In this document: positions 2,792 to 45,789 of the stretch, in pieces | Layout: the number at the start of each line of letters is the position of its first letter | Numbering within the stretch: the first letter of the stretch is position 1 | DNA from: Alphaproteobacteria bacterium | GTDB lineage: Bacteria > Pseudomonadota > Alphaproteobacteria > SP197 | Reading direction: 5' to 3' | NCBI GenBank assembly: GCA_964291265.2 | Contig: OZ219746.1 | Location: 64,001 to 128,000 of the forward strand | DNA length: 64,000 bases | Position numbers and translations under genes: made by a program | Notes under the pieces: generated by a model | Told to the model about the DNA's origin: nothing | The model's database searches: none | The model's input: only the letters and a program-made list of their open reading frames with translations

Positions 2792-3409
2792 GCGTTCGGT
2801 CATGCAGTGATGGCTGGTGCGGCTCCGGTCTCTCTCAACGATCTGCCGACAGACAAGAGGCTGATCAAACGGTCCGCCGCACCTGCGGTGCCAATCAACT
2901 GATACAACATGCCCGATTCCTCTCGTTTCGGCTTGTCGTCTCCCCGATGTCACAGAACACCGAAGGAACCATGGCGACAACGCACCTCATCCAGCACCGG
3001 GTCGACGCGCTCAAGCGGGGGAAGGTCATCTCTGGATGGGGTGCGATACCGAACTGAAGGGCCTTGGCATCCGCATCATGCCCTCGGGCACGAGGCGCCG
3101 CTTCATTCACTCCCGGCACGAGGGCTAAGAGGATCTGGAAGACCTTCGACGATGCCGGCGCCGTGCAGGAACGGCAACCTGGCGGGCCTGTTGGATCGAG
3201 AGGGACGCACTCTTCGAGGCCGGCGCACGGGAAGTCCACCACGAACAGCTCTGGAAGCCTCGTACCCTCGAGGTCAACCGGCACCATCTTCGCAGACAGA
3301 TCCTGCCCTTCTTCGCTGGCCGCATGATCAGCGCCATGCAAGGCAGAACGTCGCAGCATGGTTCCGTTCTCTCCATGCAACACCGGTGGCGGCAAACCGA
3401 TCTGCGCCG

Positions 3410-5774
3410 GTAACTGCTCACCCCCCGCTGATCATGGATCGTTTCCTGGCGGCGTTCGGGTCCGGGCATCTTCTCTTGTCACCATCACTCGCCGAGCGTC
3501 GGGTGCCGGTTGGCAGGAACCGGTCCGGTCTTCGGCCCTTTCCGGCCCGTGGCGACAGGGCCGAACGGCTCACGGCTCAAGATGCCTTCCGGCCTCCGGC
3601 ACCGTTCCGCGGCATGGGCGTCCAGCTGAACGGCCCCGGAGTCATGTTCTCCCCGGTCGTATCCGGCCCTTGCTCATGGACAGGCAGGCGGATAGTTTGT
3701 CCGTGCGTTCGTCGCGGCCGTTCCGGGACATTCGGGGCCACGACAGGGAAGGTTCTCCGCACCCCACCCGGCCGCGGTTTCCGGCGCCGCGAAGGGAGAG
3801 ATCAATGACCCGCCGCCGTCTTCCGATCGGGATCCAGGGCTTTCCGACGATCCGGAACGAGGACTTCTACTATGTCGACAAGACATCGCTGGTCCGGCGG
3901 CTGGTGGACGAGGGGCGCCATTACTTCCTGTCCCGTCCGCGCCGCTTCGGCAAGAGCCTGCTGCTCGACACCCTGCGATCGCTGTTTGCCTGCCGCGAAC
4001 CCCTGTTCAGGGGACTGGCCATCCACCCCCACTGGGACTGGTCAACGCCCCATCCGGTGGTGCGGCTGAGCTTCGGCGGGAAATACAACGAACCCGGCGA
4101 GATCGAAGAGGACATCATCGTGCAACTGGACGGCGTGGAGCGCGAGCACGGTCTCCCGCCTGCCCGGATCTCCTATACCGGCCCGAGACGTCTGCGGGAC
4201 CTTCTCGACCGCCTGCACGACGCCACTGGCCGACAGGTCGTGGTGCTGGTGGACGAGTACGACAAGCCGATCCTCGACGCGCTCCACGATCCGGAGCTTG
4301 CGACGACCAACCGGGACTACCTGCGCGGCTTCTACGGCATCGTCAAGGACAGCGACGAGCATGTCCGCTTCGTCTTCGTCACCGGTGTCAGCATGTTCTC
4401 GAAGGTCAGCCTGTTCTCGGGACTCAACAATCTGAAGGACATCAGCCTCGATCCGCGCTTTGGCACGATCTGCGGCTACCGCGAGGAGGACCTGGACCGT
4501 GTGTTCGGCCCCGAAATGGCCGGGCTGGACCGCGAGGAGATCCGCACCTGGTACAACGGTTACCACTGGCGAGGCGGGGAGCGGGTCTACAATCCCTATG
4601 ACGTGCTCCTGCTGCTCGACAGTCGCGAGTTCCGCCCCTACTGGTTCGAGACGGGATCTGCGAATTTCCTGTTCCGGATGCTGATGGAGAAGTCGGTGAG
4701 TCCGATGGAACTGGAGGGGCGGCTGGCGGACACGTCGCTGGTCTCGAAGTTCGATGTCGGCGACATCGACATCGAGGCGCTGCTCTTCCAGACCGGCTAC
4801 CTGACCATCGCCGGGGAGGAAAGGCAGGACCACAGGACCCTCTACCGTCTGGACTATCCCAACCTCGAGGTCCGGATCAGCCTCAATGACGGACTGCTTG
4901 CCTGGCTGGGCAAGAAGGGGGGCGAGCCACTGGAGCGGGGCCGCGAGTTCTGCGCACTGCTGGAGGCGAACGACTTCGCGAGCTTCGGCGAGAAGCTCCG
5001 CGCCTGGCTCGCGGGCATACCCTATCAGTGGCATGCCAGGGGCGACCTGGCGCGCTACGAGGCCTGGTATGCGAGCCTTCTCTACATGTGCCTGCGTGCG
5101 GCCGGGGTGGGCTTGAGCGTGGAGGAGGCCTCGCATCGCGGCCGTGCGGACATGGTGGTGCGTCTCGGCGGGCAGATCTTCGTGCTGGAGTTCAAGATGG
5201 CCGACGGCGAGGAGGACGGCGCCGCCGCGCTGGATGCGGCCATGACGCAGATGCGCCAGCGAGGCTATGCGGAGACCTACCGCGACCACGACGGCTCGGT
5301 TCACCTGATCGGCGTGGCCTGCGGGCGCGAGGCGCGCAACCTCCTCGATATCCGCGCCGAGACCGCATGAACTCAGAGCCATGCAGGAATCCGGATGCGT
5401 CGACGGAACTCGACCGCGCCGACCGATCAAGAAGCCGGTGCTCCGTTGAGACCCCCGTTCGTCCAACGAATTGCCGACGCCGGTGATCCGTGCGGCGACC
5501 GTCCGGACCCTTTCAAGGAGACACGACGGACGATTCCCGGCTCGAACGCATGAGCAGCCGACGGAACCGGCACCGTCGGCTGAGGGTTTCGGGACCGCGC
5601 TGCAGACCATCACGCCACGGGACAACAAGGGGCCTGAAGACCGGACCGGTTCTTGCCAACCGGGGCCCGCACATCCGGTTCCCGGCAACGGACCCGTGAA
5701 GGTGACGAAAGAAGGTGCCTGACCCGAACGTCCTCGAGAAAAGGCGATCAAGGATCACCCGGGTGAGCAGTTAC
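3410..5774. mobile_element. Non-autonomous IS66-ended cargo cassette carrying an AAA-ATPase/nuclease gene
   Basis: Terminal IRs GTAACTGCTCACCC (3410) and GGGTGAGCAGTTAC (5761-5774); 8-bp TSD CTGCGCCG at 3402-3409 and 5775-5782; no transposase inside. Confidence 0.9.
3805..5370 (+). CDS. AAA-ATPase-like domain plus C-terminal PD-(D/E)XK nuclease (copy 1)
   Basis: LPIGIQ..YYVDKT; Walker A RPRRFGKS; Walker B VLVDEYDKP; nuclease motif GRADMVV...VLEFK; RBS GGGAGAG before ATG 3805. Confidence 0.9.
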   Translation: MTRRRLPIGIQGFPTIRNEDFYYVDKTSLVRRLVDEGRHYFLSRPRRFGKSLLLDTLRSLFACREPLFRGLAIHPHWDWSTPHPVVRLSFGGKYNEPGEIEEDIIVQLDGVEREHGLPPARISYTGPRRLRDLLDRLHDATGRQVVVLVDEYDKPILDALHDPELATTNRDYLRGFYGIVKDSDEHVRFVFVTGVSMFSKVSLFSGLNNLKDISLDPRFGTICGYREEDLDRVFGPEMAGLDREEIRTWYNGYHWRGGERVYNPYDVLLLLDSREFRPYWFETGSANFLFRMLMEKSVSPMELEGRLADTSLVSKFDVGDIDIEALLFQTGYLTIAGEERQDHRTLYRLDYPNLEVRISLNDGLLAWLGKKGGEPLERGREFCALLEANDFASFGEKLRAWLAGIPYQWHARGDLARYEAWYASLLYMCLRAAGVGLSVEEASHRGRADMVVRLGGQIFVLEFKMADGEEDGAAALDAAMTQMRQRGYAETYRDHDGSVHLIGVACGREARNLLDIRAETA

Positions 5775-6085
5775 CTGCGCCGGTCCTTTTCCTCACCATG
5801 CAGAAGGCCGAAGAACAGCAGCCACTGCTTCGGCTCGCTGCCGCTACCGCGAGACCAGGCGCGAACGGTTCCTCCTGCCGGAGGAGTTCCGCAGTCTTGC
5901 AGCGGTCCTGGCACGCCACCAGGCAAGGCGTCCCCTGCACACGGTCCTCTCTCGTTCATGATCGAGGCCATGGGTGCTTTCGACGAGCCGCGCGGAGCGA
6001 CGCAGCAGCTGACGGGAGGTGGCGACCGGCCTGTGTCTGGCGCCAGCGGCCTTGTCATGCGAGGCGACTGACTGGCGGTCGCTCC

Positions 6086-6302: not shown

Positions 6303-9300
6303 CTACCAGGTCAGGGTCGCACGGAACATCAGTTCATGCTCGGGACTGCCCTCAGCGTCCCGTTCTCGGCGCAGGGTTTCCAAGCCCAGCACCATCGATG
6401 ACCCGAGTTCCAGACGCACCCCGGCCCGGTAGTTTCTCCCGCGATCTTCCGACAGCACGAACCCGGCATAGGGGGTCAGGAGGCCCTGTCCGTTCAGGGC
6501 CGGAAGTCCGTAGCCGACTTCCGTCACCAGATGCGGCGCTGCCGCATGCCGGTTCCGAGAACCGTCGTTCGCCCCCGTCGGCGGCAACGCCGTCCATCGG
6601 GACGGTCCGCCACCGCCGTCGACCACGCCCAGTCCCGGTGCGAGGCTCAATGACAGACCGTGCCCGTTGCCACCGGCACCCTTCCGGATCAGGCCCCCGA
6701 AGCCCCATTCTTCGGTCTCGCCGCTGTGGCCGGCCAGCGTCCGCCCGCGAATCTCCAGTGTCAGATCAAGGGCCGTATCGAGATAGCCCAACGCACCTGC
6801 GATCTCCAGGCCGGTCCCTGTTCCGCCGTCGCCGCCGTCGCTGCGGAACGCCACTTGCAGAGACGGCGTCAGGACCGTGTTCTCCGTGATCGTGTGCACA
6901 TGTCCTGCTTCCAGCGAAACCCGCAACAACTCCACATCGGAACGAATCGAAGCGAGAGATCCCGAACCTTCGATCTCGGCCCGGGCCAGTGCGCCGTCGG
7001 CCCCCATGTCGACCGTGGTTCGGCCGCCCTTGATCAGGCTGTCGCTTGCATACAGCTCCCCCTGGATGCCGGCCGCCACGGAAGTCTGGGTCAGGTCCCC
7101 GGACTGCGTGCCTTCGTGATTGTCCCTTATCTCGACATCGCCGGTGCCGTATCCGGCCATGGCCCAGAGCTCGACGCCCGACGACAGCGTCACCCCTGCA
7201 TACGGGTGGACACCGACCTGGTCCGTCTCGTAGGTCCCGGAATGCGCCGTCGCGCCCGAGCCCTCCTCATAGTCGAAACTGCCTCTCGACAGCGACAGCG
7301 ACAAGCCCGCAATCGTGTTGCGGCGAATCCGCATGTCGGCCCCGAGGTGGCCGCTCGTCATCCTGCCGTCCCACGAGACGCCGTTGCTCGTGCCCGACAA
7401 CTCGCGCCAGTCGCCACTGCCCCAGAACACCGCGCCACCCGGCACGGCCGAAGCATCGCCTCCCTCCGCGTTGAGCGGAAGTGCGAACGAGGAACCTGCC
7501 AGCATGCGGGCGGCCTCGAATCCGTCGTTCGCGAATTGCGGTCCGTGCATGTCCATCGCCTGCAGCCATCGGCTTGCCATTCCGGCATCGGACGTCTCCA
7601 TCTCCGATGGACCGGCGAGACCGGCGCCGATCCGGGCGCGGACCGCGTCCACGGTGCTCGCCAGGGTCACCCGCGTGGATTCCGACAGAAGCGTCTTGGC
7701 GATCTTGGCGATCTTACCGTTCGCGCCGTCGGGCGGGTAGACGCCCGGGTCGCTGCGCCCGAGCAGCGCCTGACCCACCTTGTCCACGTGCGCCTTCTGC
7801 ATGTCGCCCAGGATCTTCGCCGCGCCCGACCCCGGATAGTGCGCACAGTACGCGCTCGACGGGTCCGCCGTGTCGCCGTCCCCCGCCGCGATCCGCATCT
7901 TGCGGCAGTCGAGCGACTCCCACCACGCCCCGACGCTCGTGAAGCCGCCATCCCCGTAGATCAGGGCCGCCGCCGCATCCACCAGGCGTTTCGTCTCCGC
8001 ATCCAGGTCGGCATACATCTTCTTCGCCGCCGTCTCCTGCGCCGGTGTCGTATCGTCACCGTGCAGCGCCGCCACCATCTGCTCCGCCGTCAGCACGTTC
8101 CACCAGCGCATCGCCATCGCGTTGTCGGACGGGTAGACGCCCGGGTCGCTTCGCCCGAGCAGCGCCTGGCCCACCTTGTCCACGTGCGCCTTCTGCATGT
8201 CGCCCAGGATCTTCGCCGCGCCCGACCCCGGATAGTGCGCACAGTACGCGCTCGACGGGTCCGCCGTGTCGCCGTCCCCCGCCGCGATCCGCATCTTGCG
8301 GCAGTCGAGCGACTCCCACCACGCCCCGACGCTCGTGAAGCCGCCATCCCCGTAGATCAGGGCCGCCGCCGCATTGACCAGGCGTTTCGTCTCCGCATCC
8401 AGGTCGGCATACATCTTCTTCGCCGCCGTCTCCTGCGTCGGTGTCGCATCGTCACCGTGCAGCGCCGCCACCATCTGCTCCGCCGTCAGCACGTTCCACC
8501 AGCGCATCGCCATCGCGTTGTCGGACGGGTAGACGCCCGGGTCGCTGCGCCCGAGCAGCGCCTGGCCCACCTTGTCCACGTGCGCCTTCTGCATGTCGCC
8601 CAGGATCTTCGCCGCGCCCGACCCCGGATAGTGCGCACAGTACGCGCTCGACGGGTCCGCCGTGTCGCCGTCCCCCGCCGCGATCCGCATCTTGCGGCAG
8701 TCGAGCGACTCCCACCACGCCCCGACGCTCGTGAAGCCGCCATCCCCGTAGATCAGGGTCGCCGCCGCATTGACTAGGCGTTTCGTCTCCGCATCCAGGT
8801 CGGCATACATCTTCTTCGCCGCCGTCTCCTGCGCCGGCGTCGCATCGTCACCGTGCAGCGCCGCCACCATCTGCTCCGCCGTCAGCACGTTCCACCAGCG
8901 CATCGCCATCGCGTTGTCGGACGGGTAGACGCCCGGGTCGCTTCGCCCGAGCAGCGCCTGGCCCACCTTGTCCACGTGCGCCTTCTGCATGTCGCCCAGG
9001 ATCTTCGCCGCGCCCGACCCCGGATAGTGCGCACAGTACGCGCTCGACGGGTCCGCCGTGTCGCCGTCCCCCGCCGCGATCCGCATCTTGCGGCAGTCGA
9101 GCGACTCCCACCACGCCCCGACGCTCGTGAAGCCGCCGTCCCCGTAGATCAGGGTCGCCGCCGCATTGACTAGGCGTTTCGTCTCCGCATCCAGGTCGGC
9201 ATACATCTTCTTCGCCGCCGTCTCCTGCGCCGGCGTCGCATCGTCACCGTGCAGCGCCGCCACCATCTGCTCCGCCGTCAGCACGTTCCACCAGCGCATC

Positions 9301-9482
9301 GCCTTCGGATCATCCAGCGTCTGCGCGTTCGCCGCGGCCGACCAGGTCAGGACCAGAGGAACCACGAGCCCGGCCAGCGCCGCACCGATGCCCGGGCGGA
9401 TCCCGGCGAGGCCGCTCCTCCGGGCGCACGACTCACGTCGGGGGTGATGGGTATCGGCTCGAGTTGAGGCAACGTTCGTCAT
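6303..9482 (-). CDS. Autotransporter (type V) with a tandem-repeat passenger domain
   Basis: Signal peptide ending AANA|Q; four 132-aa repeats; C-terminal beta-barrel (FWGSGDWRELSG, HPYAG, LTPSLQVAFRSDGGDG, LTPYAG) ending in W. Confidence 0.85.
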   Translation of the reverse strand: MTNVASTRADTHHPRRESCARRSGLAGIRPGIGAALAGLVVPLVLTWSAAANAQTLDDPKAMRWWNVLTAEQMVAALHGDDATPAQETAAKKMYADLDAETKRLVNAAATLIYGDGGFTSVGAWWESLDCRKMRIAAGDGDTADPSSAYCAHYPGSGAAKILGDMQKAHVDKVGQALLGRSDPGVYPSDNAMAMRWWNVLTAEQMVAALHGDDATPAQETAAKKMYADLDAETKRLVNAAATLIYGDGGFTSVGAWWESLDCRKMRIAAGDGDTADPSSAYCAHYPGSGAAKILGDMQKAHVDKVGQALLGRSDPGVYPSDNAMAMRWWNVLTAEQMVAALHGDDATPTQETAAKKMYADLDAETKRLVNAAAALIYGDGGFTSVGAWWESLDCRKMRIAAGDGDTADPSSAYCAHYPGSGAAKILGDMQKAHVDKVGQALLGRSDPGVYPSDNAMAMRWWNVLTAEQMVAALHGDDTTPAQETAAKKMYADLDAETKRLVDAAAALIYGDGGFTSVGAWWESLDCRKMRIAAGDGDTADPSSAYCAHYPGSGAAKILGDMQKAHVDKVGQALLGRSDPGVYPPDGANGKIAKIAKTLLSESTRVTLASTVDAVRARIGAGLAGPSEMETSDAGMASRWLQAMDMHGPQFANDGFEAARMLAGSSFALPLNAEGGDASAVPGGAVFWGSGDWRELSGTSNGVSWDGRMTSGHLGADMRIRRNTIAGLSLSLSRGSFDYEEGSGATAHSGTYETDQVGVHPYAGVTLSSGVELWAMAGYGTGDVEIRDNHEGTQSGDLTQTSVAAGIQGELYASDSLIKGGRTTVDMGADGALARAEIEGSGSLASIRSDVELLRVSLEAGHVHTITENTVLTPSLQVAFRSDGGDGGTGTGLEIAGALGYLDTALDLTLEIRGRTLAGHSGETEEWGFGGLIRKGAGGNGHGLSLSLAPGLGVVDGGGGPSRWTALPPTGANDGSRNRHAAAPHLVTEVGYGLPALNGQGLLTPYAGFVLSEDRGRNYRAGVRLELGSSMVLGLETLRRERDAEGSPEHELMFRATLTW
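7734..9302 (-). repeat. Four tandem near-identical 396-bp (132-aa) coding repeats
   Basis: Period 396 bp; unit AMRWWNVLTAEQM...GVYPSDNAM; only a few SNPs between copies; fourth copy ends at GVYP. Confidence 0.97.
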
Positions 9483-40365: not shown

Positions 40366-40915
40366 CCGGCGGCTTGCTCACCGAACCAGATCGGAAGGAA
40401 GGACTGTCCCTGGTCTATGTCAAGGCACTGGCGGTGCGTGCGGGTTTTCTGACCACGGTGCCGGGGCCGGACCGCGACAGCGTCGACCTGCGGATTCAGG
40501 CGGGAGGTACATATCGCCCGGCCCTCGAGTTGCAGCTCAAGGCCACTGCCGGTTTCGACGGGCCGCGAAACGGCTTCTTGCCGTTTCGACTGCCTTTGAA
40601 GAACTACGGTAACTACTCACCCCCTACTGATGACGGATCGTTTTTCCTGACGGGTTCGGATTCGGCATTTTCTCTTGCCGCCTTCACTTGCTCGCTGCCG
40701 ATGATCGGATGTGCGTGTTCCGACTGACAAGAAGCGGATCGATCTTCGGCTTCAGCTCCACGTTCCGGCCTTACATAACCAGGTTTTGTCCCCGTGATGA
40801 TGCAATCATCCACAGCGGTTGGCTGCCTTTCCAATCCTCTGGAGATATGCGCTTGACATTGTAGGAGGGGCACTCTACATGCAGGCCATCGGGGCGGTTT
40901 GCGTCGGAGATATTG

Positions 40916-41590
40916 ATGGCGGCATGGTACGGATCGAAGGCGACGACGGGTCTGAGCCAGGCGATCGTCGCGGCCATGCCGCCGCATGACGTGTACATCG
41001 AGGCGTTCCTTGGGGGCGGCGCGATCATGAAGCGCAAGCCACCGGCGCTGCGCAGCATCGGCATTGACCTCAACCGCCGGGCGATCGACAGCTTCCGCTG
41101 TGACTATCCGGTGGAGCTTCACCAAGGCTGCGCCCTGCGTTTTCTCGAGACCTTCGCCTTCCAGGGCCGCGAGCTGGTCTACTGCGACCCGCCTTACGTG
41201 CAGTCGACGCGCCGGTCGCAGCGCCGCTACCGCTTCGACTGCACGGACGATGACCATGTTGCGCTCCTCGACATCCTGACGTCGCTGCCCTGCCAGGTGA
41301 TGATCTCCGGCTATCCCTCGCGGCTCTACGACACGCACCTCACCGGCTGGCGCTCGGCCGAGGTCCAGGTCAACAACCAGGCCTGCGTTGTCACCGAGAA
41401 GCTGTGGTTCAACTTCGCACCGGGCCGACCGCACTGGCATACGTGTGCGGGCAGGAACTCGATCGACCGCCAGCGCATCAAGCGCCTCGCAGAGAGCTGG
41501 GCGCGGCGCTACCGGACGATGCCCGAAGGCGAGCGGCTCGCCGTGCTGGCGGCAGTCATGGCGGTGGAGGCGTCGTCATGGCGAGCGTGA
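40916..41590 (+). CDS. Small Dam/D12-class N6-adenine DNA methyltransferase (passenger of the outer IS)
   Basis: WYGSK; motif I YIEAFLGGGA; IGIDLN; motif IV YCDPPY; VMISGY. Confidence 0.88.
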   Translation: MAAWYGSKATTGLSQAIVAAMPPHDVYIEAFLGGGAIMKRKPPALRSIGIDLNRRAIDSFRCDYPVELHQGCALRFLETFAFQGRELVYCDPPYVQSTRRSQRRYRFDCTDDDHVALLDILTSLPCQVMISGYPSRLYDTHLTGWRSAEVQVNNQACVVTEKLWFNFAPGRPHWHTCAGRNSIDRQRIKRLAESWARRYRTMPEGERLAVLAAVMAVEASSWRA

Positions 41591-42027
41591 ACGGCACGTC
41601 TGTGCGCCAGGAGGTCGACGTCTTCCAGAAGCAGTTCCAGGATCTCCGCAAGCAAGGCAAGGTCAACCAGGAGTGCGAGGAGCTCTTCCGCGGCCTGCTG
41701 ATGCTGATAAAGCTGTTGCTGACCGTGCTCATGGAGAAGATCACACGCAAGACGAGCCGGAACTCCGGTCTGCCGCCATCTCAGACTGACAAGGACGAGA
41801 GCGCGAGGCGCACCGGGAGCAACGGCAAGGGCCCGAAGCCGAACCAGCAGACGGGCGACAACCTGCGCACGACCACCGTCGAGGAGACGATCGTCGTTGA
41901 TGCCTGCGACGCCTGCGGCGCCGACCTCCACGACGTTGACCCCGTCGACCGGGAGTGCCGCGTCCTCTACGACATCGTGTTCGAAGTCGTCGAGCGCCGC
42001 GTCGAAGCCGAGATCAAGGGTAACTAC

Positions 42028-43506
42028 TCACCCCTTGTTAGGGTCTGGTTGTCCGTAGTGTTGGTTGAGGATGTCTACGGCCTTTCCGTCGAGGGCGATG
42101 TGGATGGCGACGTGAGGGTTGTAGCCGAGTGCGTCCATGGTGGTGAGGTAGCTTGAGCCGCGGCACCATGCTTTGGCGTGGGGCATGGTGCGGAAACATC
42201 CGGACACCTTGATCTTGACCTTTGTCATCCTGATCTTCTGCTCTCCGGTATTGTTGGTGAAACTGACGTTGGGGTCCTTCATGAAGCGCAGGACGGACTT
42301 CTCGTGTTTCACGAGACGTTCATGCAGGTTGTGCGCGTCGGACTTTGCGATGCGTCCACGTTTTCCTTTCGTCCGTGGCGGGATGTCGGGCAGTTCCTTG
42401 GCGCCCTGGGTGAGGATGGTGCGGTAGCGCTTGCGCACGGCCCGGCGGTCGGCCTCGTTCAAGGTCTTGGATGCGCTCTTGTTGACCCTGCGGGAGACCT
42501 CGCGCAGCAGGCTTTTCATCAGTCGCGCCCAGCGGTAGCCGTTGGACTCGACGACGAAGGTCAGTTCGCGCAGGAGATGGCTGCCGCACAGTTGGTGGCG
42601 GCATTGATCGTAGCCCATGTAGGCAGCCCAGCAGTCGTGGATCAGGACGCCCTTGTAGCGCGGGATGATGCCGATCTCTTCGATCGCCTCCCGGCCGCGC
42701 TTGGGGTGCGGGAACTTGCACGTCAGGGTGCCGTCGGTGACGACATGGAGCCATTGGGTCTTGCCGGCGACCCGGAAGCCGGTCTCGTCGACATGCAGGG
42801 CCGGTTGTTGCAGGAGATGGGCCACGGCGGCCTCCTCCCATGATGCGAGGGCATCGTGAAAGCGCCGGACATAGCCGAGGCAGGTCGCCTCGGAGAGCTT
42901 GATGCCGGAGATCGCGTGCACGAGCGAGACGGCACGACGCAGGGACAGCATCTGGGCGATCAGCAGGTTGATGACGAGGGCCTGGATGCTGACGCCGTAC
43001 TGCAGGGGGCCCGGCATGTTGTCTGGGAACCGGCCCTTGGTCCGGGCCCGGCACTTCGGGCATTCCTTGATCTCGGCTTCGACGCGGCGCTCGACGACTT
43101 CGAACACGATGTCGTAGAGGACGCGGCACTCCCGGTCGACGGGGTCGACATCGTGGAGGTCGGCGCCGCAGGCGTCGCAGGCATCGACGACGATCGTCTC
43201 CTCGATGGTGGTCGTGCGCAGGTTGTCGCCCGTCTGCTGGTTCGGTTTCGGGCCCTTGCCGTTGCTCCCGGTGCGCCTCGCGCTCTCGTCCTTGTCAGTC
43301 TGCGATGGCGGCAGACCGGAGTTCCGGCTTGTCTTACGTGTGATCTTCTCCATGAGCACGGTCAGCAACAGCTTTATCAGCATCAGCATGCCGCGGAAGA
43401 GCTCCTCGCACTCCTGGCTGACCTTGCCCTGCTTGCGGAGATCCTGGAACTGCTTCTGGAAGATGTCGGCCTCCTGGCGCACAGACGTGCCGTTCACGCT
43501 CGCCAT
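42028..43506 (-). CDS. IS66-family TnpC DDE transposase (492 aa)
   Basis: KTSRNSGLPPS; CDACG and CPKC Zn finger; HVDETG; IHDCW; HQLCGSHLLREL; FTNNTGEQKIR..K.KVSGCFR. Confidence 0.93.
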   Translation of the reverse strand: MASVNGTSVRQEADIFQKQFQDLRKQGKVSQECEELFRGMLMLIKLLLTVLMEKITRKTSRNSGLPPSQTDKDESARRTGSNGKGPKPNQQTGDNLRTTTIEETIVVDACDACGADLHDVDPVDRECRVLYDIVFEVVERRVEAEIKECPKCRARTKGRFPDNMPGPLQYGVSIQALVINLLIAQMLSLRRAVSLVHAISGIKLSEATCLGYVRRFHDALASWEEAAVAHLLQQPALHVDETGFRVAGKTQWLHVVTDGTLTCKFPHPKRGREAIEEIGIIPRYKGVLIHDCWAAYMGYDQCRHQLCGSHLLRELTFVVESNGYRWARLMKSLLREVSRRVNKSASKTLNEADRRAVRKRYRTILTQGAKELPDIPPRTKGKRGRIAKSDAHNLHERLVKHEKSVLRFMKDPNVSFTNNTGEQKIRMTKVKIKVSGCFRTMPHAKAWCRGSSYLTTMDALGYNPHVAIHIALDGKAVDILNQHYGQPDPNKG

Positions 43507-44168
43507 GACGACGCCTCCACCGCCATGACTGCCGCCAGCACGGCGAGCCGCTCGCCTTCGGGCATCGTCCGGTAGCGCCGCGCCCAGCTCTCTGCGAGGC
43601 GCTTGATGCGCTGGCGGTCGATCGAGTTCCTGCCCGCACACGTATGCCAGTGCGGTCGGCCCGGTGCGAAGTTGAACCACAGCTTCTCGGTGACAACGCA
43701 GGCCTGGTTGTTGACCTGGACCTCGGCCGAGCGCCAGCCGGCGAGGTGCGTGTCGTAGAGCCGCGAGGGATAGCCGGAGATCATCACCTGGCAGGGCAGC
43801 GACGTCAGGATGTCGAGGAGCGCAACATGGTCATCGTCCGTGCAGTCGAAGCGGTAGCGGCGCTGCGACCGGCGCGTCGACTGCACGTAAGGCGGGTCGC
43901 AGTAGACCAGCTCGCGGCCCTGGAAGGCGAAGGTCTCGAGAAAACGCAGGGCGCAGCCTTGGTGAAGCTCCACCGGATAGTCACAGCGGAAGGTGTCGAT
44001 CGCCCGGCGGTTGAGGTCAATGCCGATGCTGCGCAGCGCCGGTGGCTTGCGCTTCATGATCGCGCCGCCCCCAAGGAACGCCTCGATGTACACGTCATGC
44101 GGCGGCATGGCCGCGACGATCGCCTGGCTCAGACCCGTCGTCGCCTTCGATCCATACCATGCCGCCAT
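43494..44168 (-). CDS. Small N6-adenine DNA methyltransferase (passenger of the inner IS)
   Basis: Near-identical to 40916-41590; overlaps the tnpC start by 13 bp. Confidence 0.88.
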   Translation of the reverse strand: MAAWYGSKATTGLSQAIVAAMPPHDVYIEAFLGGGAIMKRKPPALRSIGIDLNRRAIDTFRCDYPVELHQGCALRFLETFAFQGRELVYCDPPYVQSTRRSQRRYRFDCTDDDHVALLDILTSLPCQVMISGYPSRLYDTHLAGWRSAEVQVNNQACVVTEKLWFNFAPGRPHWHTCAGRNSIDRQRIKRLAESWARRYRTMPEGERLAVLAAVMAVEASSWRA

Positions 44169-45789
44169 CAATATCTCCGACGCAAACCGCCCCGATGGCC
44201 AGCATGTAGAGTGCCCCTCCTACAATGTCAAGCGCATATCTCCAGAGGATTGGAAAGGCAGCCAACCGCTGTGGATGATTGCATCATCACGGGGACAAAA
44301 CCTGGCCATATAAGGCCGGAACGTGGAGCTGAAGACGAAGATCGATCCGCTTCTTGTCAGTCGGAACACGCACATCCGATCATCGGAAGCGAGCAAGTGA
44401 AGGCGGCAAGAGACAATGCCGGATTCGAACCCGTCAGGAAAAACGATCCGTCATCAGTAGGGGGTGAGTAGTTACGATCAAGGAATGTCCGAAGTGCCGG
44501 GCCCGGACCAAGGGCCGGTTCCCAGACAACATGCCGGGCCCCCTGCAGTACGGCGTCAGCATCCAGGCCCTCGTCATCAACCTGCTGATCGCCCAGATGC
44601 TGTCCCTGCGTCGTGCCGTCTCGCTCGTGCACGCGATCTCCGGCATCAAGCTCTCCGAGGCGACCTGCCTCGGCTATGTCCGGCGCTTTCACGATGCCCT
44701 CGCATCATGGGAGGAGGCCGCCGTGGCCCATCTCCTGCAACAACCGGCCCTGCATGTCGACGAGACCGGCTTCCGGGTCGCCGGCAAGACCCAATGGCTC
44801 CATGTCGTCACCGACGGCACCCTGACGTGCAAGTTCCCGCACCCCAAGCGCGGCCGGGAGGCGATCGAAGAGATCGGCATCATCCCGCGCTACAAGGGCG
44901 TCCTGATCCACGACTGCTGGGCTGCCTACATGGGCTACGATCAATGCCGCCACCAACTGTGCGGCAGCCATCTCCTGCGCGAACTGACCTTCGTCGTCGA
45001 GTCCAACGGCTACCGCTGGGCGCGACTGATGAAAAGCCTGCTGCGCGAGGTCTCCCGCAGGGTCAACAAGAGCGCATCCAAGACCTTGAACGAGGCCGAC
45101 CGCCGGGCCGTGCGCAAGCGCTACCGCACCATCCTCACCCAGGGCGCCAAGGAACTGCCCGACATCCCGCCACGGACGAAAGGAAAACGGGGACGCATCG
45201 CAAAGTCCGACGCGCACAACCTGCATGAACGTCTCGTGAAACACGAGAAGTCCGTCCTGCGCTTCATGAAGGACCCCAATGTCAGTTTCACAAATAATAC
45301 CGGAGAGCAGAAGATCAGGATGACAAAGGTCAAGATCAAGGTGTCCGGATGTTTCCGCACCATGCCCCACGCCAAAGCATGGTGCCGCGGCTCAAGCTAC
45401 CTCACCACCATGGACGCACTCGGCTACAACCCTCACGTCGCCATCCACATCGCCCTCGACGGAAAGGCCGTAGACATCCTCAACCAGCACTACGGACAAC
45501 CAGACCCTAACAAGGGGTGAGTAGTTACGAACTACGAGGATCTTCGTGTTGTTACGCAGACGCCACGGTTGCTCGTGGTGCTGGAGCTTCCCGAAGACGA
45601 AGCGCACTGGATGTCGGTGACTGAGGATGCTCTCATTCTGCGATATCGCGCGTACTGGCTGAGCTTGCAACGGGGCCATGATGACGTCACCGGTCGGAAG
45701 ACCGTCACGGTTCATGTCCCTGAACGCAACATACTCGATGTTGAGACCCTACAAGAGCTCATGGAGCAATCCAGGACGGGAGAACTCTG

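Follow-up and report, generated by a model that had tools for sequence, protein, structure and literature searches.

A transposase-less cassette with two inverted IS66 left ends, likely mobilised in trans by a resident single-transposase IS66

The window, that is the whole stretch of 64,000 nucleotides that was analysed, contains a 2365-bp cassette (3410-5774) in which a nuclease gene lies between two inverted IS66 left ends. We hold with considerable confidence that this transposase-less cassette has been inserted as a unit at different sites and was likely moved in trans by the TnpC protein of an IS66 resident in the genome. A sequence-only reading of the window had proposed a non-autonomous cargo element, and this proposal is borne out by two copies with different 8-bp duplications, by empty sites and by a third junction in another sample.

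Structure of the cassette

The inverted repeats and the perfect 8-bp duplication described at the outset are exact: the cassette begins and ends with identical 14-bp tips (GTAACTGCTCACCC, at 3410-3423 and, inverted, at 5761-5774), and CTGCGCCG is repeated directly outside them (3402-3409 and 5775-5782). In none of five Markov-simulated sequences of the length of contig C1 did 14-bp inverted repeats occur within 10 kb of each other with an exact 8-bp repeat at their flanks. The cassette and its host site are composed as follows (window coordinates, strand).

2942..3401, +: degraded tyrosine-integrase gene, 5' part, the insertion target
3402..3409, +: target duplication CTGCGCCG, left copy; the two paralogous integrase remnants have it once, at the corresponding position
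3410..3423, +: terminal inverted repeat, 14 bp; the tip of the resident IS66 differs once (position 7)
3410..3556, +: first IS66 left-end module, of the sister lineage, ~147 bp, with a ~15-bp internal deletion
3551..3804, +: the cargo gene's own leader, common to non-cassette paralogues
3805..5370, +: cargo, an intact 521-aa DUF1703-type AAA-ATPase-like + PD-(D/E)XK_9 nuclease gene
5371..5569, no strand: spacer of captured downstream DNA; other matches only in copy 2 and over 37 bp beside a cargo pseudogene (C2:401 kb)
5570..5774, -: second IS66 left-end module, in inverted orientation, with ~205 bp of homology to the left end of the sister lineage
5761..5774, -: terminal inverted repeat, same as the left one
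5775..5782, +: target duplication, right copy
5783..5944, +: integrase remnant, continuation

The two ends, initially described as imperfect inverted copies over ~150 bp, are 72% alike over ~145-160 bp. The first left-end module meets the cargo leader at a 6-nt microhomology (3551-3556), as a deletion would leave. The nuclease gene is indeed the only cargo, a single intact gene with PF09820 and PF08011 domains; a tblastn search of the cassette with three IS66 transposases and the methyltransferase gave one match (E 0.02, 30% over 54 amino acids), which was taken as noise. No inner tip within the cassette was found in the end lists or in a right-end profile scan. The possibility that each end is a complete miniature element was considered and rejected: an inner boundary that seemed common to three ends vanished with the sister-lineage left end. 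Repeat-like letters at one orphan end turned out to be the stop region of a neighbouring gene.

Insertion sites

That the cassette lies within an integrase remnant was confirmed by comparison within the genome. Empty-site alleles, which the first reading had suggested looking for, are represented by two paralogous integrase remnants that read through with one CTGCGCCG; removal of the cassette and one repeat from the window restores continuity with both. One of them carries Arm-DNA-bind_3 and Phage_int domains, and the window's own frameshifted integrase frame gave no Pfam match. Just before the remnant lies a solo end of a third IS66 family (2788-2812), and a contig of public run X3 (see below) departs from the window at 2774. 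Positions 6303-9482 are occupied by a gene for an autotransporter-like protein with four 396-bp repeats, labelled from sequence features.

A genome-wide search for further copies, also suggested at the outset, yielded one more (copy 2, C2:860127-864855), which has the same ends, is 98% identical and is flanked by a different 8-bp duplication, CGCTTACC. Its site is nested: an AAA_14 ATPase gene is split by a 2883-bp IS66 of the third family, and the cassette sits at the tip of that IS66, with CGCTTACC repeating 7 nt of the host's tip repeat. Since the host IS66 differs by only 0.07% from the nearest of its siblings (comparison of 8 copies) and its tip was duplicated, copy 2 arrived after a young IS66 and thus recently. 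An IS4-type element lies inside the left repeat of copy 2, a 2.35-kb insertion that separates the left tip from the rest of the end; copy 2 may have moved on ~17 bp of left tip. The IS4-type element is 1.75% from its nearest sibling, most siblings also being 1-1.7% apart, and these distances fit an arrival of the element before as well as after the move of the cassette. This element (L070:5527-7543; G000 C2:862486-864838; nine near-full copies compared) has a DruA-like domain before its transposase, and the third IS66 family seems, by eye, to have a similar DruA-like reading frame near its right end.

The two cassette copies differ at 55 places, 29 of which fall within an 85-bp patch at the 5' end of the cargo gene; outside this patch the difference is 26 of ~2270 bases. 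The patch matches other paralogues better, and we read it as a likely gene conversion.

Three public runs hold the region, all from one study, and no RNA run was listed among them. Run X1 shows no differences to the window flanks in most pieces listed and may be the source of the window. Run X3 has 26 changes in 1575 flank bases, and its contigs depart from the window exactly at 3410 and 5774, with a depth close to that of neighbouring single-copy DNA. The X3 letters after 5774 map (29 of 30) to C1:170570, inside a gene for a 368-aa enolase-superfamily protein which is intact in this genome. The X3 junction, read from the right flank, is a third cassette site, empty in this genome. At the window site X3 shows no cover immediately to the right of the tip, an observation that by itself proves nothing, and no joint that skips the cassette was among the joints listed.

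These sites bear on the idea that two unrelated old insertions face each other by chance and that the segment owes its copies to recombination or to passive transport within other elements. Such an origin would fit the several orphan left ends found among a total of 34 left-end-like matches in the genome, and the limited likeness of the two cassette ends. It is contradicted by the two different perfect duplications that abut the exact tips, by the empty site in the paralogues and by the divergence of the X3 contigs at those same tips. Facing relics could explain the first formation of the cassette, not its movement, and the idea is largely refuted; we consider it very improbable.

Ancestry of the two ends

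The ends were compared with the first 20 nt left out and with 200 shuffles. Both cassette ends match the left end of the resident IS66 (z 14-19), whereas z is 1-2.5 against right ends (four of this group and one of a second IS66 family), with no score above the best shuffle. Both cassette ends are left ends by this comparison, as had been claimed. In the relatives examined, right ends of this IS66 group are transposase coding sequence, and no coding sequence of this right-end type is present in the cassette. The right end of the cassette was also considered as the right end of another IS66; it did not rise above shuffles against five right ends and scored 17-21 against two more.

Homology to the IS66 left end extends over ~140 bp, and over up to ~205 bp in comparison with the sister lineage. 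The earlier alignment of both ends, over ~85 bp, to the left end of an autonomous IS66 at 40609 was thus right in the match and too short in its length; moreover, the IS66 starting at 40609 is not intact, because an inverted second copy (42020-44475), which carries the full transposase, splits it.

Several comparisons place the cassette ends apart from the resident IS66. An orphan end of this genome gives both of them higher scores (z 32-41) than the resident left end does. In a tree built from 13 ends, in which 7 of 10 forks are open, both group with the sister lineage (90/92), the resident clade standing apart (99/98). A pattern scan of species genomes gave four loci in two Paracoccaceae genomes, in one of which cassette-type left ends head methyltransferase+TnpC elements that are 82% like the resident IS66. 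The cassette ends thus trace back to an older lineage that is sister to the resident IS66, and not to a resident copy itself. Beyond the tip their resemblance to the resident left end is ~70-80%, and the better scores are those with the sister lineage, which leaves room for the action of a different transposase.

Five orphan ends have no IS66 body or cargo gene within 6 kb inward, and no shared duplication was seen. The cassette tips carry 0 changes in 28 positions versus 11 in 56 in four orphan ends of the same lineage (by eye; Fisher p 0.013, a value biased because the cassette was found by its intact tips). The 28-nt end pattern had no match in metagenome_contigs, and the right end of the cassette matched in 0 of 22 congeners. 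At two places (G000 C2:3242255 and C2:3254353) a sister-lineage left end abuts the stop of a convergent transporter-like gene, the two having been duplicated together over ~900 bp; this left end is possibly a relic of another cassette.

The resident IS66 as the likely mover

The window contains two copies of the resident element.

42020..44475, -: intact resident IS66, 2456 bp, with 8-bp duplication GATCAAGG; D12 adenine methyltransferase-like gene at 43494-44171 and TnpC at 42028-43503
40609..45528, +: outer IS66 copy, interrupted by the inner copy, with duplication GAACTACG

The segment 40609-45528 consists of one IS66 copy inserted in inverse orientation into a second copy, and both have an 8-bp duplication of their own. 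The D12 adenine methyltransferase-like passenger is found in the resident family and also in the second IS66 family.

The resident transposase is an IS66 DDE enzyme (PF03050, E 3e-42; NF033517, 251 bits with a cut-off of 180). The element has a single transposase: a 978-bp leader and methyltransferase-like stretch is followed by TnpC, which extends to the right tip, and no TnpA/TnpB was seen in the layout. Its tip is identical to that of the cassette at 13 of 14 positions, with the difference at position 7. All 13 full-length TnpC matches in the genome belong to the resident family, of which the copies are 0-1.6% from their nearest sibling and some are identical; related matches (50-92% identity) are fragments of at most 214 amino acids. 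Inverted-repeat pairs with 8-bp duplications were listed together with their cargo, a check that had accompanied the first reading. Nineteen duplication-flanked pairs with this tip were obtained, 17 with TnpC sequence and two without, the latter being the cassettes.

In the second IS66 family of this genome, copies flanked by duplications have either A or G at position 7, and this position differs between the two ends of ISDge4, an element seen to transpose, with an 8-bp repeat and with donors remaining, according to the sections on this element in PMC12898284. For the third IS66 family, flanking repeats were found at 8 miniature elements and at 4 cassettes that lack a transposase, and action in trans therefore seems routine in this genome. 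As movers of the cassette the second and third families appear less likely, their tips matching at 10/14 and 9/14 positions (by eye). The resident single-transposase IS66 is the likely mover, as judged from tips and copies.

The four cassettes with third-family ends form a second transposase-less cassette family (C1:38865-40833; C2:64403-66252 (L069); C2:1597656-1601907; C2:3086228-3092790 (G000)). Each copy has a perfect 8-bp duplication and a YhgA-like (Transposase_31 + DUF4351) gene and is built from miniature elements; in one, the gene has been amplified to four tandem genes inside one duplication.

A different mover can be envisaged, namely the transposase of a sister-lineage IS66 with G at position 7 of its own tip, now lost or residing on a passing replicon. 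Both cassette ends carry this G and group with the sister lineage, and another genome has elements of this lineage whose TnpC frames are long. This genome, however, has no full-length sister transposase, and copy 2 was inserted later than an IS66 that is 0.07% from its sibling, while the resident family made identical copies. We consider movement by a sister-lineage transposase improbable and retain the resident TnpC.

Proposed origin of the cassette

The cassette could have originated from two inverted copies of an older sister IS66 that lay on either side of a resident DUF1703 gene, the left ends facing outward. Deletions, one of them at the 6-nt microhomology, would have taken out both IS bodies, leaving the gene and its own leader between ~150 and ~205 bp of IS66 end. 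TnpC would pair the two 14-bp tips, from which its own tip differs at position 7 only, and would insert the unit with an 8-bp duplication; as two tips would be paired, a right end would be unneeded. Two independent relics, or one end copied onto the other, may also have given rise to the cassette. No birthplace copy of the cassette was found.

A probable intermediate toward a left-left cassette is present in the same Paracoccaceae genome that has the methyltransferase+TnpC elements (L059:168-8160, G041). This 8-kb left-left composite consists of a left end with part of a methyltransferase gene, a GmrSD_N gene, an HTH-peptidase gene and an inverted IS66, so that one arm is a full-length but decayed IS and the other is truncated; inverted composites that erode to left-left cassettes would be expected to take this form. 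Outside its two left tips are GGGAAATC and AGGAAATC, which match at 7 of 8 positions, a match seen in 2 of 650 comparisons among unrelated duplications, and its site is the gap between convergent genes.

In a more general form, for which we see an evenly balanced case, a single-transposase IS66 would recognise only a short symmetric tip and could do without a right end, so that any pair of decayed left ends that face each other and have kept their tips, even of an extinct sister lineage, could capture a chromosomal gene and be mobilised by the current IS. The Paracoccaceae composite and the cassette would then be early and late stages of one route.

The cargo gene and its family

The 521-aa cargo protein consists of an N-terminal PF09820 and a C-terminal PF08011 domain and possesses Walker A/B and D...EFK nuclease motifs. 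Its dN/dS is 0.18-0.31 versus 16 paralogues. The cargo leader contains a predicted promoter-like motif (TTGCTC-17-TAGTTT, 3670-3698), found in 17 of 20 leaders, and a strict sigma-70 scan of this leader gave no site. In a comparison with described anti-phage systems, which bears on the defensive role raised as a possibility at the outset, the protein matched 0 families among the PADLOC models at E 0.01, and it matched none in NCBIfam; the function of the DUF1703 family is called unknown in the passages of PMC6387759 that treat it. The family has two alternative N-terminal segments (window 3805-3920; one type in 6 of 18 members), which are scattered across the tree and differ between the cassette copies; this suggests segment exchange.

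The suggestion that the cassette explains the multicopy spread of this family did not hold. Among 20 cargo loci examined, 18 have intact frames, and only two of these are cassette-borne. A role of the cassette as the engine of the expansion, with other paralogues delivered by it and their ends lost later, would agree with the dispersed location of many of the 18 intact paralogues and with a solo IS66 right end between two DUF1703 genes in the Paracoccaceae genome that has the left-left composite. Yet the other 16 lack a 12-bp inverted pair with flanking repeat within 8 kb, a feature confined to the cassette-borne two, and six paralogues are arranged in two tandem arrays. Moreover, the two cassette genes form a single 100/100 clade on a long stem (0.12) nested inside the family tree. 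Their synonymous distance to 15 close non-cassette paralogues is 0.23-0.35 (distant paralogue C2:4221741 left out). Three congeners (G001, G009 and G012) have the gene and show no match to the ends; in G012 a tip lies 6 kb from the cargo homologue and has no partner. When the whole cassette served as query, matches were obtained in 3 of 40 relatives, in the cargo only (7 candidates per genome scored). Expansion of the family by the cassette is thus highly unlikely. The cassette appears to have captured one member of an already expanded family, and it is a late, minor copying route for that family.

Relation to known mobile elements

In the structural features that were tested, the cassette agrees with a mobile insertion cassette (MIC), a known kind of element. 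The Bacillus MICs have IS231 ends. Following the definition in the relevant passages of PMC4337579 and PMC3129680 (MICs are also named in PMC3281130), the cassette carries its passenger gene inside inverted repeats related to an IS, encodes no transposase and is flanked by a target duplication of the length usual for the parent family, namely 8 bp in each of the two genomic copies and in the 17 TnpC-bearing pairs. As to a cognate transposase acting in trans, there are 13 full-length resident TnpC genes with 13/14 tip identity, and the cassette ends are of the sister lineage. The MICs of Bacillus cereus and of the TnXax1 type, as portrayed in PMC4337579, share this layout, with the cognate transposase elsewhere in the genome. 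Unlike them, the cassette has IS66-type ends, both of them left ends and of an older sister lineage than the resident transposase, whereas TnXax1-type MICs have Tn3 ends; mobilisation in trans would apply here by analogy. A Tn3-family derivative with two left repeats is mentioned in PMC4337579.

TIME-COMPs and IMU-bounded elements, in the part of PMC13367494 devoted to them, likewise have cargo between two inverse non-autonomous modules with like ends outermost, and are moved in trans. Each of their modules is a complete miniature element of the Tn3 family that has two repeats, and their duplications are 5-6 bp long, whereas the modules of the cassette are truncated left ends that are 72% alike, with no inner repeat seen and an 8-bp duplication. 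Having neither complete miniature modules nor Tn3-family repeats nor a 5-6 bp duplication, the cassette is not a TIME-COMP.

The ISBst12 group, as represented by ISDge4 in PMC12898284, shares with the cassette a tip beginning GTAACT and the 8-bp duplication. The resident IS66 resembles this group and the transporter tIS66 described in PMC12888890, where passengers in IS66 are documented, in having a single transposase and a passenger gene. The cassette, unlike ISBst12-group IS66, has no transposase and no right end. As for the cargo, the DUF1703 expansions of Cardinium cCpun also combine PF09820 with PF08011 and show many paralogues with recombination among them; the account of these expansions in PMC6387759 names no transposable carrier, whereas here one DUF1703 lineage is cassette-borne. 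In the open-access literature, a scope outside which the main IS66 survey falls, no IS66 cassette with two left ends was found.

Implications

A DUF1703 gene has been moved by transposition, interrupting genes differently between strains; why and how the DUF1703 family expanded is left unexplained by the cassette. Transposition of IS66 elements is described as insufficiently characterised in a 2026 paper (PMC12898284). The cassette is a natural left-left substrate with several insertion sites, and as such provides a test of whether an IS66 transposase needs two different ends. It also offers a test of cross-mobilisation between sister lineages.
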